DNA of 64,000 bases from a phage. Below the pieces are notes generated by a model. The model made no database searches, was not told the DNA's origin, and saw nothing but the letters and a program-made list of their open reading frames with translations. Location of the stretch: the sequence record PZ402301.1, one strand, 5' to 3'. A program made the position numbers and the translations under genes. Positions 2,343 to 63,670 of this stretch are shown piece by piece. Position 1 is the stretch's first letter, and each line of letters starts with the position of its first letter.

Positions 2343-4322
2343 ATGACTTTATTATCTCCGGGCATTGAGCTCAAAGAAACTACGGTTCAAAGCACCGTGG
2401 TTAATAACTCTACTGGTACAGCAGCTTTGGCCGGTAAATTCCAGTGGGGTCCTGCTTTTCAGATCAAACAGGTTACAAATGAAGTAGATTTAGTTAATAC
2501 TTTTGGTCAACCTACAGCTGAAACTGCTGACTATTTTATGTCTGCAATGAATTTCTTACAATATGGAAATGATTTGCGAGTTGTGCGTGCTGTCGATAGA
2601 GATACCGCTAAAAACTCATCTCCGATTGCTGGTAATATTGAATACACTATTTCTACCCCAGGTAGTAACTACGCGGTTGGAGATAAAATCACAGTTAAGT
2701 ATGTTTCAGAAGACATTGAAACGGAAGGTAAAATTACCGAAGTAGATGCTGATGGAAAAATTAAGAAAATTAATATTCCTACTGCAAAAATTATCGCTAA
2801 AGCGAAAGAAGTCGGTGAATATCCAGCATTAGGTTCTAACTGGACCGCGGAAATTTCTTCGTCTTCCTCTGGTTTAGCTGCAGTAATAACTCTTGGAAAA
2901 ATTATTACTGATTCCGGTATTTTATTAGCTGAAATTGAAAATGCTGAAGCTGCTATGACAGCTGTTGACTTTCAGACAAATCTCGAAAAATATGGAATTC
3001 CAGGAGTAGTAGCTCTTTATCCAGGCGAGTTGGGCGATAAAATCGAAATTGAAATCGTATCTAAAGCTGACTACGCAAAAGGTGCTTCTGCATTACTCCC
3101 AATTTATCCAGGTGGCGGAACACGCGCATCTACTGCTAAGGCAGTGTTTGGATATGGACCACAAACTGATTCACAATACGCTATTATAGTTCGCCGTAAT
3201 GATGCTATTGTTCAAAGTATTGTTCTTTCAACAAAGCGTGGTGAAAAAGACATTTATGACAGTAACATCTATATTGATGACTTTTTCGCAAAAGGCGGTT
3301 CAGAATATATTTTCGCAACTGCACAAAACTGGCCAGAAGGATTCTCCGGAATTTTAACTCTGTCTGGTGGATTATCGTCAAATGCTGAAGTAACAGCAGG
3401 AGATTTGATGGAAGCCTGGGACTTCTTTGCTGACCGTGAATCTGTTGACGTTCAGTTGTTTATTGCGGGTTCTTGTGCCGGTGAATCTTTAGAAACAGCA
3501 TCTACTGTCCAAAAACACGTCGTTTCAATTGGGGATGCTCGTCAAGATTGCTTAGTATTATGCTCACCACCGCGTGAAACTGTAGTTGGAATTCCTGTAA
3601 CTCGCGCTGTTGATAACTTAGTCAATTGGAGAACTGCAACAGGTTCATACACTGATAATAACTTTAATATCAGTTCAACCTACGCAGCAATTGATGGTAA
3701 CTACAAGTATCAGTATGACAAATATAATGATGTGAATCGTTGGGTTCCATTAGCAGCTGATATTGCTGGTTTATGTGCAAGAACCGATAACGTTTCTCAG
3801 ACTTGGATGTCTCCAGCTGGTTATAATCGTGGTCAGATTCTTAACGTTATTAAACTTGCTATTGAAACTCGCCAAGCTCAGCGTGACCGTTTATATCAAG
3901 AAGCTATCAACCCGGTAACCGGTACAGGTGGTGATGGTTACGTATTGTATGGTGATAAAACAGCTACTTCTGTTCCTTCTCCATTTGATCGTATTAATGT
4001 TCGTCGTCTGTTTAATATGTTGAAAACGAATATCGGACGTAGTTCAAAATATCGTTTGTTCGAATTAAACAACGCGTTTACTCGTTCATCATTCCGCACA
4101 GAAACTGCCCAATACTTACAGGGAATTAAAGCTCTCGGTGGAATTTATGAATATCGTGTAGTTTGCGATACAACAAATAACACTCCGTCAGTAATTGATA
4201 GAAATGAGTTTGTTGCAACATTCTACATCCAACCGGCTAGAAGCATTAACTACATTACCTTGAACTTCGTAGCAACTGCTACAGGTGCAGATTTCGATGA
4301 GTTAACTGGTCTTGCAGGTTAA
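2343..4322 (+). CDS. 18: tail sheath protein gp18
   Basis: 659 aa, same as T4 gp18; gene order 17-18-19. Confidence 0.93.
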   Translation: MTLLSPGIELKETTVQSTVVNNSTGTAALAGKFQWGPAFQIKQVTNEVDLVNTFGQPTAETADYFMSAMNFLQYGNDLRVVRAVDRDTAKNSSPIAGNIEYTISTPGSNYAVGDKITVKYVSEDIETEGKITEVDADGKIKKINIPTAKIIAKAKEVGEYPALGSNWTAEISSSSSGLAAVITLGKIITDSGILLAEIENAEAAMTAVDFQTNLEKYGIPGVVALYPGELGDKIEIEIVSKADYAKGASALLPIYPGGGTRASTAKAVFGYGPQTDSQYAIIVRRNDAIVQSIVLSTKRGEKDIYDSNIYIDDFFAKGGSEYIFATAQNWPEGFSGILTLSGGLSSNAEVTAGDLMEAWDFFADRESVDVQLFIAGSCAGESLETASTVQKHVVSIGDARQDCLVLCSPPRETVVGIPVTRAVDNLVNWRTATGSYTDNNFNISSTYAAIDGNYKYQYDKYNDVNRWVPLAADIAGLCARTDNVSQTWMSPAGYNRGQILNVIKLAIETRQAQRDRLYQEAINPVTGTGGDGYVLYGDKTATSVPSPFDRINVRRLFNMLKTNIGRSSKYRLFELNNAFTRSSFRTETAQYLQGIKALGGIYEYRVVCDTTNNTPSVIDRNEFVATFYIQPARSINYITLNFVATATGADFDELTGLAG

Positions 4323-4338
4323 TACGGTGCATTCTAAA

Positions 4339-4356
4339 GGCCTGTTTCGGCAGGCC
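4339..4356 (+). terminator. intercistronic GC stem-loop after gene 18 (GGCCUG..CAGGCC)
   Basis: 6-bp GC-rich inverted repeat 17 nt after gene 18 stop; no U-run, so more likely attenuator or processing structure than strong terminator. Confidence 0.35.
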
Positions 4357-4357
4357 A

Positions 4358-4365
4358 TATAAATA
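4358..4365 (+). promoter_or_regulatory. late promoter box TATAAATA (distal, gene 19)
   Basis: Exact TATAAATA immediately 3' of the hairpin. Confidence 0.4.
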
Positions 4366-4416
4366 CACTATATCCTTAATTCTTTAATTCTATATGCCCT
4401 AGGTTAAACATAGGGA

Positions 4417-4424
4417 TATAAATA
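4417..4424 (+). promoter_or_regulatory. late promoter box TATAAATA (proximal, gene 19)
   Basis: Exact TATAAATA 15 nt upstream of gene 19 ATG. Confidence 0.5.
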
Positions 4425-4438
4425 CTACAGAGGCTAAT

Positions 4439-4930
4439 ATGTTTGTAGATGATGTAACACGAGCGTTTGAATCTGGTGATTTTGCTCGACCTAACTTATT
4501 CCAAGTAGAAATTTCTTATCTTGGACAAAATTTTACGTTTCAATGTAAAGCCACTGCTTTACCAGCTGGTATTGTAGAAAAAATTCCAGTCGGATTTATG
4601 AACCGTAAAATTAACGTAGCAGGCGATCGTACATTCGATGACTGGACTATTACAGTAATGAATGATGAGGCGCATGATGCACGCCAGAAGTTTGTTGACT
4701 GGCAAAGCATTGCTGCTGGGCAAGGAAACGAAATTACTGGTGGAAAACCAGCAGAGTATAAAAAGAGTGCTATTGTACGCCAATATGCTCGTGACGCTAA
4801 AACTGTAACAAAAGAAGTCGAAATTAAAGGCCTGTGGCCTACTAACGTGGGTGAACTTCAGTTAGATTGGGATTCAAACAATGAAATCCAAACCTTTGAA
4901 GTAACTCTCGCTCTCGATTATTGGGAATAA
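4439..4930 (+). CDS. 19: tail tube protein gp19
   Basis: 163 aa as in T4 gp19; follows sheath gene. Confidence 0.93.
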   Translation: MFVDDVTRAFESGDFARPNLFQVEISYLGQNFTFQCKATALPAGIVEKIPVGFMNRKINVAGDRTFDDWTITVMNDEAHDARQKFVDWQSIAAGQGNEITGGKPAEYKKSAIVRQYARDAKTVTKEVEIKGLWPTNVGELQLDWDSNNEIQTFEVTLALDYWE

Positions 4931-4937
4931 AATGAAT

Positions 4938-4951
4938 GGGGAGAAATCCCC
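4938..4951 (+). other. stem-loop GGGGA-GAAA-UCCCC (GNRA tetraloop) just after gene 19 stop
   Basis: 5-bp GC stem with GAAA loop, 8 nt downstream of gene 19 stop. Confidence 0.4.
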
Positions 4952-4962
4952 ATCCTGCTTAA

Positions 4963-6587
<1,625 letters not shown>

Positions 6588-59550: not shown

Positions 59551-62500
59551 ATGGCTACTTTAAAACAAATACAATTTAAAAGAAGCAAAACTGCAGGAGC
59601 ACGTCCTGCCGCTTCAGTATTAGCCGAAGGTGAATTGGCTATAAACTTAAAAGACCGCGTACTTTTTACTAAAGATGACCAAGGAAATATCATTGATCTT
59701 GGTTTTGCTAAAGGCGGTAGCATTGACGGGAATGTTATTCATATAGGAAACTATAATCAAACTGGTGATTATACTTTAAATGGTACCTTCACTCAAACCG
59801 GTGATTTCAATTTAACTGGTATTGCTCGAGTAACTCGCGATATTATTGCCGCCGGGCAGATTATGACTGAGGGTGGAGAACTTATTACAAAAAGTTCAGG
59901 TACATCGCATGTTCGTTTTTTCGATGGCAATAGCCGCGAACGTGGAATCATTTATGCCCCGGCTAATGATGGATTAACTACGCAAGTAGTTAATATCCGC
60001 GTTCAAGACTACGCCGCTGGTGATGAAAGCACCTATGCATTTTCAGGCAGTGGCCTATTTACTTCACCTGAAGTATCAGCATGGAAATCTATTTCATCTC
60101 CACAAATTCTGACCGATAAAGTTATTACAAATGGGAAGAAGACAGGCGATTATGATATCTATTCATTAGCAAATAACACTCCGTTGGCAGAAAGCGAAAC
60201 GGCTATTAACCACCTCCGTGTTATGCGAAATGCCGTAGGATCTGGTATATTCCATGAAGTTAAAGATAACGACGGGATAACCTGGTACGCCGGTGACGGG
60301 TTAGATGCCTATCTTTGGTCGTTTACCTGGTCCGGTGGATTGAAAGCAGGCCATTCTATTTCTATAGGTCTTCCGGGCGGCTCTAAAGGATATTCTGAAT
60401 TAGGGACTGCTTCAATTGCTCTTGGTGATAATGATACCGGATTTAAATGGCATCAGGACGGATATTTTCATACAGTAAACAACGGAACAAGAACTTTCAT
60501 TTACGGTCCTGCGGAAACACAAAGCCTTAGAAAAATGGTTATGGGTTATTCTCCGGATGGGATTCTTATGACAACGCCACCGACAGAAAACTATGCATTA
60601 GCCACTGTTGTTACTTATCATGATAATAACGCGTATGGCGACGGTCAGACTCTTTTAGGTTATTATCAAGGCGGTAATTATCATCACTATTTCCGTGGTA
60701 AAGGTACTACAAACATTAATACTCACGGCGGTTTGTTAGTTACTCCCGGTAATATTGACGTTATTGGTGGTTCTGTTAATATTGATGGTAGTAATAATGC
60801 TTCTACGCTGATGTTTAGAGGTAACACAACTGGTAGCAGTTCAGTTGATAATATGACAATTTCTGTATGGGGTAATACGTTTACTAATCCTAGTGTAGGT
60901 AATCGTAAAAATGTCATGGAAATTTCTGACGCAACTAGCTGGATGAGTTATATTCAAAGACTTACTACCGGTGAAGTAGAAATGAACGTCAATGGTTCAT
61001 TTGAATCATCCGGTGTTACTGCTGGAAATAGAGGAGTTCACACAACAGGCGAAATTTCATCTGGAGCAGTGAATGCGCTTCGCATTTGGAATGCAGATTA
61101 TGGAGCCATTTTTAGACGTTCAGAAGGCAGTCTTCATATTATTCCAACTGCTTACGGTGAAGGTAAACATGGCGATATCGGTCCACTTCGCCCGTTTAGT
61201 ATGGCTTTAGATACTGGTAAAGTTACTATTCCAGATTTACAATCAAGTTACAATACGTTCGCAGCAAACGGCTATATTAAATTTACTGGTCACGGTGCAG
61301 GCGCTGGTGGTTATGATATTCAGTATGTTCAAGCAGCTCCTATTTTCCAGGAAATTGATGATGATGCTATAAGCAAATATTATCCTATTGTTAAACAGAA
61401 GTTTTTAAACAGTAAAGCGGTTTGGTCTTTAGGTACTGAAATTAATTCGGGTACATTTGTTTTACACCATATCAAAGAAGATGGATCACAAGGCCATACG
61501 TCTCGTTTTAATCAAGACGGTACTGTTAACTTCCCGGATAACGTTCAGGTCGGTGGTGGTGAAGCTACTATTGCTCGAAATGGTAATATCTGGTCTGATA
61601 TTTGGAAACCGTTTACTTCTGCCGGTGATACTACAAATATTCGCGATGCTATTGCGACTCGTGTTTCGAAAGAAGGCGACACGATGACCGGTAAATTGAC
61701 TTTATCGGCAGGCAATGATGCTCTTGTTTTAACTGCAGGCGTGGGTGCTTCATCGCACATCCGTAGTGATGTAGGTGGTACAGGTAACTGGTATATAGGC
61801 AAAGGCGGCGGCGATAATGGTCTAGGTTTTTACAGTTACATTACACAAGGCGGTGTATACATAACAAATAACGGCGAAATATCGCTTTCTCCTCAAGGTC
61901 AAGGAACATTTAATTTTAATAGAGACCGCCTTCATATAAACGGTACACAGTGGACTGCGCACCAAGCTGGCGATTGGGCAAACCAATGGCGACAAGAAGC
62001 GCCGATATTTGTAGATTTTGGCTACGTCGGCAATGACTGCTATTATCCTATTATTAAAGGAAAATCTGTTATTACGAATGAAGGATACGTATCTGGTGTT
62101 GATTTCGGTATGCGCCGTATCACTAACCAATGGGCTCAGGCTATTATCCGTGTTGGTAACCAGGAAAATGCTAGCGATCCGCAAGCTATCTTCGAATTCC
62201 ACCATAATGGAAACATGTACGTTCCTGACATGGTTAAAGCTGGAGTAAGAATATCAGCTGGTGGAGGTGACCCTGCATGGACAGGCGCATGTGTTGTTAT
62301 TGGTGATAATGACACTGGGTTAGTTCATGGCGGTGACGGTCGTATTAACATGGTTGCAAATGGAATGCATATTGCTTCATGGTCGTCCGCTTACCATCTC
62401 CATGAAGGTCTTTGGGATACCACTGGTGCTTTGTGGACTGAACAAGGAAGAGCTATTATTTCTTTTGGTCATTTAGTCCAACAAAGCGATGCCTATTCCA

Positions 62501-62862
62501 CATTTGTCCGCGATGTTTATGTCCGTTCTGATATTCGTGTTAAAAAAGACCTTGTTAAATTTGAAAATGCTTCTGAGAAGCTTTCTAAAATTAACGGTTA
62601 CACTTATATGCAGAAGCGAGGCCTAGATGAAGAAGGAAATCAGAAATGGGAACCTAACGCCGGTTTGATAGCTCAAGAAGTTCAAGCTATTTTACCTGAA
62701 TTAGTTGAAGGTGACCCTGATGGTGAAGCTTTACTTCGTTTGAACTATAACGGTGTAATTGGTTTAAATACAGCTGCAATCAATGAGCATACTGCAGAAA
62801 TTGCAGAACTTAAATCAGAAATCGAAGAACTTAAAGCATTAGTTAAATCATTGTTAAAATAA
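59551..62862 (+). CDS. 37: long tail fibre distal subunit gp37 with C-terminal intramolecular chaperone/autoprotease module
   Basis: 1103 aa; N-terminal region as in T4 gp37; C-terminal about 110 aa (SDIRVKKD...[15 protein letters not shown]...coiled coil) resemble self-cleaving chaperone domains of phage fibres. Confidence 0.92.
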
Positions 62863-62866
62863 TAAG

Positions 62867-62882
62867 AGGGGCTTCGGCCCCT
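62867..62882 (+). other. AGGGGC-UUCG-GCCCCU hairpin between gene 37 stop and gene 38 RBS
   Basis: 6-bp GC stem with UUCG tetraloop 5 nt after gene 37 stop; no strong U-run, overlaps the region immediately 5' of the gene 38 start. Confidence 0.45.
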
Positions 62883-62893
62883 TGGGGGTTTAT

Positions 62894-63670
62894 ATGGCAG
62901 TAACAGGACCGTGGGTAGGATCGTCTGCAGTAGTTAATACAGGACAAAATTGGATGGGTGGCGCGGCCCAACGATTAAGAATGGGCATTCCGTTTTGGAT
63001 GAGTAATATGATAGGTCGATCTGTTGAAATAATTCACACGCTTGGAGCAGACCATAACTTCAATGGTCAATGGTTCCGAGATAGATGTTTTGAGGCAGGT
63101 AGTGCACCTATAGTGTTTAATATCACCGGAGATTTAGTATCATATTCTAAAGATGTTCCTTTATTCTTCATGTACGGAGATACACCAAATGAATATGTTC
63201 AACTGAATATACACGGTGTAACGATGTATGGCCGTGGCGGGAATGGCGGTAGCAATAGTCCTGGCTCAGCTGGAGGTCATTGTATTCAAAATGATATTGG
63301 TGGGAGACTAAGAATTAATAATGGCGGAGCTATTGCTGGCGGCGGTGGCGGCGGCGGTGGCGGATATTATTCTCCTTTTTCACAAATGAGATTGACATTT
63401 GGCGGTGGTGGCGGTCGTCCGTTTGGCGCGCCGGGCGGATCTATTGATATGCAATCAGGAGCAACTGCCGGTACTATTTCTGCGCCTGGCGCAGGGTCTG
63501 TGAACGGTATCTATAGCGGCGGGTCTGGTGGTGAAGTTGGCTCCGCAGGAGGTAGATGTAATATTCGTGGTCAAGGATATGAATACGATGGCGGAGCTGC
63601 TGGTTATGCCGTCATAGGGTCTACGCCAACGTGGCAAAACGTTGGAGCAATATATGGTCCAAGAGTATAA
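62894..63670 (+). CDS. 38: gp38 receptor-recognising adhesin (T2-type, glycine-rich motifs)
   Basis: ORF-track start 62882 is TTG; ATG at 62894 gives 258 aa with multiple glycine-rich motifs ([52 protein letters not shown]) separated by variable segments. Confidence 0.85.

Follow-up and report, generated by a model that had tools for sequence, protein, structure and literature searches.

Genes 37 and 38 at the tail fibre locus

The stretch of DNA analysed here (the window; 64,000 nucleotides of the phage sequence record PZ402301.1) carries its tail fibre genes in the order 34-35-36-37-38-t-asiA, and the features discussed below are collected in Table 1. Over 4.1 kb the region shares 99.8% identity with the Escherichia phages vB_EcoM_P8 and vB_EcoM_BMB16, both belonging to Tequatrovirus, and its identity to many other T-even phages is 88-93%. 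The gp37 annotated in vB_EcoM_P8 has 99.8% identity to the product of gene 37, which matches PHROG 1699, the family named 'long tail fiber protein distal subunit'. The original prediction gave gp37 a length of 1103 aa, about 80 aa more than T4 gp37; the length is correct and the difference is 77 aa (T4 gp37 is 1026 aa in NC_000866). It should be noted that gp37 of P8, the nearest relative (3001-6315 of the P8 stretch compared), has 1104 aa, one codon more than the gene studied here, despite the nucleotide identity of 99.8%.

The segment of main concern is the last 111 residues of gp37 (993-1103, encoded by 62527-62859), exactly those quoted in the original prediction, which are followed by the stop codon at 62860-62862. 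The list of open reading frames contains none of at least 50 aa across 62527-62859 on either strand besides gp37 itself, by which an overlapping gene of that size was ruled out. Further upstream, residues 450-550 (window ~60898-61200) match Gp34_trimer (PF21446, E 1.1e-7); this match is also found in T4 and T2 gp37, and it thus represents a module common to the proximal and distal fibre subunits.

Table 1. Features at the end of the tail fibre gene cluster, in window coordinates.
Feature	Position	Strand	Description and basis
Gene 37, long tail fibre distal subunit precursor	59551..62862	+	1103 aa, 118.8 kDa; ORF, P8 annotation, PHROG 1699
Mature gp37 (predicted)	59551..62526	+	Residues 1-992, 106.5 kDa, ending ...FVRDVYVR; S74 boundary and homology to S16/fPS sites
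Scissile bond Arg992/Ser993 (predicted)	62524..62529	+	Ser993 is the predicted nucleophile; aligned to S74 position 1, 3GUD residue 1 and the S16 Ser
Peptidase_S74 core	62527..62706	+	Residues 993-1052, mixed alpha/beta; Pfam PF13884; AlphaFold2 pLDDT 72-83
Lys998, general base at Ser+5 (predicted)	62542..62544	+	Invariant in four-sequence alignment; T5 pb1 spacing
C-terminal long helix, predicted trimeric coiled coil	62746..62856	+	Residues ~1066-1102; AlphaFold2 and heptad pattern
Hairpin GGGGC-UUCG-GCCCC	62866..62883	+	Between gene 37 stop and gene 38 start; RNA fold
Gene 38, T2-type tail fibre adhesin	62894..63670	+	258 aa; Pfam GP38 (PF05268) E 2.5e-71, Gp38_N (PF21721) E 1.5e-21

The mechanical list of open reading frames lets gene 38 begin at TTG 62882, which gives 262 aa. 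Position 1 of the Gp38_N profile falls on the Met encoded at 62894 and the P8 annotation has a gene 38 of 777 nt, and for these reasons the true start is most likely ATG 62894 and not the TTG. The protein is 48-49% identical to the gp38 of T2 and of STP4-a, and its poly-Gly motifs align with theirs. The UUCG hairpin between the two genes is conserved in the corresponding position of T2, T4, STP4-a and P8, despite divergent flanks and despite the unrelated gp38 of T4. It presumably belongs with the stable C(UUCG)G hairpins known as a class from T4 intercistronic regions, which it resembles, and the G-rich stretch on its 3' side could serve as the Shine-Dalgarno sequence of gene 38.

The C-terminal module of gp37

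A search of gp37 against Pfam gives a match to PF13884 (Peptidase_S74, 'chaperone of endosialidase') with 54.6 bits (E 1.3e-14) at a gathering cutoff of 22 bits. The match spans positions 1-57 of the 58 in the profile, and position 1 falls on Ser993. The resemblance to autoproteolytic chaperone domains, for which the original prediction had proposed a profile search, is thereby borne out, and the match begins at the Ser (62527) before which the cut was predicted, a site homologous to the one reported for S16. The module sits at the extreme C-terminus of gp37, as it does in S74 members on trimeric phage fibre and spike proteins. In the PHROGs, over 25 different tail fibre families match it at their very C-terminal end, and 24 of the 25 families listed match from its first residue, which marks Ser993 as the edge of a real, exchangeable module. 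A search of NCBIfam with gp37 and with the module alone gave no match, so that database has no model for either. A match of the tail to DivIC (E 0.041, below cutoff) was set aside as weak, generic coiled-coil similarity.

The best solved relative by sequence is gp37 of Salmonella phage S16 (6F45, E 1.8e-38), with an alignment that starts ahead of the cut site and reaches the C-terminus; the CASP13 paper dealing with 6F45 contains nothing on the chaperone or its cleavage. A profile made from four sequences also finds the ICA domain of MyRF (7DC3, 6e-11), the fibre 8JOV (7e-5) and the neck-appendage chaperone of GA-1 (3GUD, 1e-3), whose chain opens with SDERHK aligned to the SDIRVK of our gp37. 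MyRF is a eukaryotic membrane-bound transcription factor in which the ICA domain is internal, and its cleavage frees the transcription factor, not a fibre. The protein homologue search returned 14 proteins, mostly short fragmentary calls, and this shallow alignment is little guide to the breadth of the family.

The structure of residues 951-1103 (a query of 153 aa) was modelled with AlphaFold2. The module is predicted with a pLDDT of 72-92 as a mixed alpha/beta part followed by an end helix of about 37 residues (query 116-152, pLDDT 81-92), a fold similar to that of solved intramolecular chaperones; the model is unreliable over its first 50 residues, which in reality are part of an intertwined trimeric tip. 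Foldseek places 7DC3 on top (E 4e-5) with the K1F endosialidase chaperone 3GW6 next. Over its final 21 residues the terminal helix shows a clean heptad pattern with I-L-I-L-V-L in the a/d positions, in agreement with the coiled-coil tail of the original prediction.

The predicted cut-site motif is DVYVR^SDIRVKK, in which the Ser993 codon is TCT (62527-62529). The pattern SD.R.K occurs a single time in gp37, at 993, so the S-D-x-R-x-K context that had been pointed out is present, with its Ser/Lys(+5) pair conserved. An alignment of our module with the S16-like one of STP4-a, that of T2 and that of a T5-like fibre leaves Ser1, Asp2, Ile3, Arg4 and Lys6 invariant. The same spacing is known from T5 pb1, where Ser1264 adjoins Lys1269 and the Thr1263-Ser1264 bond is cleaved only after the trimer has folded (PMC4690869). 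In T5 pb1 the oxyanion or folding-sensor role falls to Arg1250, at -14 from the Ser and contributed by the neighbouring chain. Our gp37, unlike T5, has no Arg at this offset: position -14 is a Ser and the nearby Arg residues are at -6 and -1 only, and either of these, Arg987 or Arg992, may fill that role.

Proposed maturation of the fibre tip

What is observed here is the identity of the domain and where it begins, its conserved Ser/Lys pair, its predicted fold and the genes around it; that gp37 of this phage cleaves itself, that it does so in dependence on trimer folding and that gp38 caps the product we infer from S16, T2, T5 and K1F. Taken as one explanation, an S74 chaperone module at 993-1103 with trimer-dependent self-cleavage followed by gp38 capping appears to us highly probable. 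The explanation proposes that three gp37 chains would associate through their C-terminal modules, coiled coil included, and that the associated modules would nucleate the trimeric, beta-structured fibre tip and keep it in register as it folds. For the homologues S16, T5 pb1 and T2/T6 it is reported that release comes after folding and that folding needs the domain. In each chain the Arg992-Ser993 bond would be cut after the tip has reached its correct fold, by Ser993 with Lys998 activating it, and the fragments, acidic and with a computed mass of 12.3 kDa, would be let go. To the exposed tip ending ...DVYVR one gp38, the product of the next gene, would then dock with its N-terminal domain, and this gp38 would bear the receptor-binding loops.

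One may instead suppose that the S74-like domain stays uncleaved as a structural C-terminal knob on the virion, with gp38 binding elsewhere or beside it. Cleavage in this phage rests on homology and gp37 lacks a T5-type sensor Arg at -14, which would suit such a knob. The catalytic Ser and Lys are both intact, however, and in S16 the last 113 residues of the homologous gp37 are reported to be autocleaved at DLNVS^SDRRIKK after trimerisation (Dunne et al. 2018, as summarised in PMC7917993). By the same account the cleavage exposes the very face on which gp38 docks, and T2/T6 gp37 is reported to be cut before gp38 capping; a retained knob is accordingly very unlikely. Nor do we give much credence to a removal of the segment by a host protease or another phage protease, the domain being then only a trimerisation and folding module. 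The original T2 work is cited as reporting proteolytic processing, which would allow for a foreign enzyme. Against it, when T5 pb1 is expressed in E. coli the S1264A change stops its cleavage, in which the Ser departs with the chaperone, and a Ser-to-Ala change is cited as having the same effect in the K1F endosialidase chaperone (PMC4690869); the S16 cleavage is described as autocleavage in PMC7917993. Moreover the Ser and the Lys are invariant in distant members of the family, as would be expected for catalysis and not for folding alone, and a foreign protease is therefore very improbable.

That the module is a chance resemblance or a non-coding artefact can be dismissed, given E-values of 1e-14 (Pfam) and 2e-38 (S16 gp37), the in-frame position at the end of an ORF of 1103 aa, and the 1450 phage records with a match over at least 80% of the module (tblastn). 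Self-cleavage by an S74 module and capping by gp38 thus remain the preferred reading. An extension of it, which we consider unlikely, is that the T-even modules, with their 99-113 aa and no Arg at the T5 offset, form a minimal S74 subclass with a different way of sensing the folding, or that the released acidic 12-kDa trimer may have a second role in timing or limiting the docking of gp38 to one adhesin per three gp37 chains.

Related systems and distribution

The chaperones of K1F endoNF (3GW6), GA-1 (3GUD) and T5 pb1 (4UW8) resemble our module in belonging to the MEROPS/Pfam Peptidase S74 family with its Ser/Lys(+5) pair and in lying at the end of trimeric fibres or spikes. With its 111 aa the module studied here falls short of the 133 aa of T5 pb1 and of the 129 residues of the 3GUD chain, and being 22 residues shorter than that of T5 it may have no room for the long beta-hairpin 'tentacles' found there. 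In K1F, GA-1 and T5 the release uncovers the receptor-binding or enzymatic surface itself, whereas in our phage it would uncover the place where a separate adhesin docks.

Among the T-even phages the closest system is S16. Its gp37 is likewise a distal long tail fibre subunit with a module at the same position (113 against 111 aa), the SDxRxKK cut-site motif, a coiled-coil tail and a gp38 adhesin gene next to it, and the S16-like module of STP4-a is ~63-65% identical to ours. Arg987-Asp988, at -6/-5 from the cut, are common to our gp37 and S16 and are not found in T2; among T-even modules this pair is confined to the S16 and window subtype. S16 differs in the residue before the cut, which is Ser there and Arg here, and in the fibre tip upstream of the cut, which is of another sequence type. 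In T2 the context of the cut, ..NVYIR/SDIRLKS with S74 starting at the Ser, is almost identical to our DVYVR/SDIRVKK, but the module has 99 aa, a much shorter C-terminal helix and only 34-35% identity, and T2 gp37 is 1341 aa long as against 1103. Yersinia fPS phages have a predicted cut at DVYIR^SDGRLKI (PMC7917993). With T2 and the fPS phages our phage appears to have in common the pathway, a C-terminal cleavage of gp37 and then gp38 capping. The 'T2-type' maturation of the original prediction can therefore be kept as the name of a pathway, in agreement with the T2-type gp38 gene next door, but not as a sequence subtype, in which the module sides with the S16-like ones.

T4 shares with our phage the gene order 34-35-36-37-38-t, as well as the N-terminal and middle portions of gp37, but the gp38 of T4 is unrelated and is a separate chaperone for assembly, not an adhesin. 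As controls, the gp37 of T2 and of STP4-a both gave S74 beginning at the homologous Ser, and T4 gp37 gave no S74 and carries Collar and Phage_fiber in Pfam. Neither of these two Pfam matches was found in our gp37, which is thus without the T4-type receptor-binding C-terminus.

The module is a known feature and a typical representative of a well-characterised family, and the phage itself is essentially the same as genomes already deposited. Proteolytic processing of T2/T6 gp37 followed by capping with gp38 has been reported since 1986 (for T2, Drexler, Riede and Henning). The module gives no new biology. Its main use lies in annotation and engineering. Setting the C-terminus of mature gp37 at the predicted Arg992 locates the gp38 docking face, which matters for swaps of gp37 tips and gp38 aimed at retargeting T-even phages, because the subtypes of the gp37 tip and the gp38 N-terminus must match (PMC3157838). 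T2 gp37 and PP01 gp38, for example, are likely incompatible (PMC12892980); the paper on PP01 gp38 is silent on cleavage of gp37.

The identity of the module across phage records falls into discrete classes (tblastn against the phage collection), of which the highest, 95% or more, has 179 records, the middle one (60-90%) has 62 and that below 60% has 1230. In addition, five NCBI entries named 'tail fiber domain-containing protein [Escherichia coli]' (P0001, P0002, P0005, P0006 and P0008), of 121-183 aa and on contigs of 60-167 kb, consist of the gp37 C-terminal end only, called from an internal Met. The contigs appear to be T-even genomes deposited as E. coli in which the gene 37 calls are fragmented. 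P0006, a close homologue, has a near-identical S74 core, and the end of its C-terminal helix (…FLKEENKLLHDRLAAIEAKLFG), aligned with 62800-62859 of the window, differs, a divergence which suggests that a recombination breakpoint lies within the coiled-coil tail.
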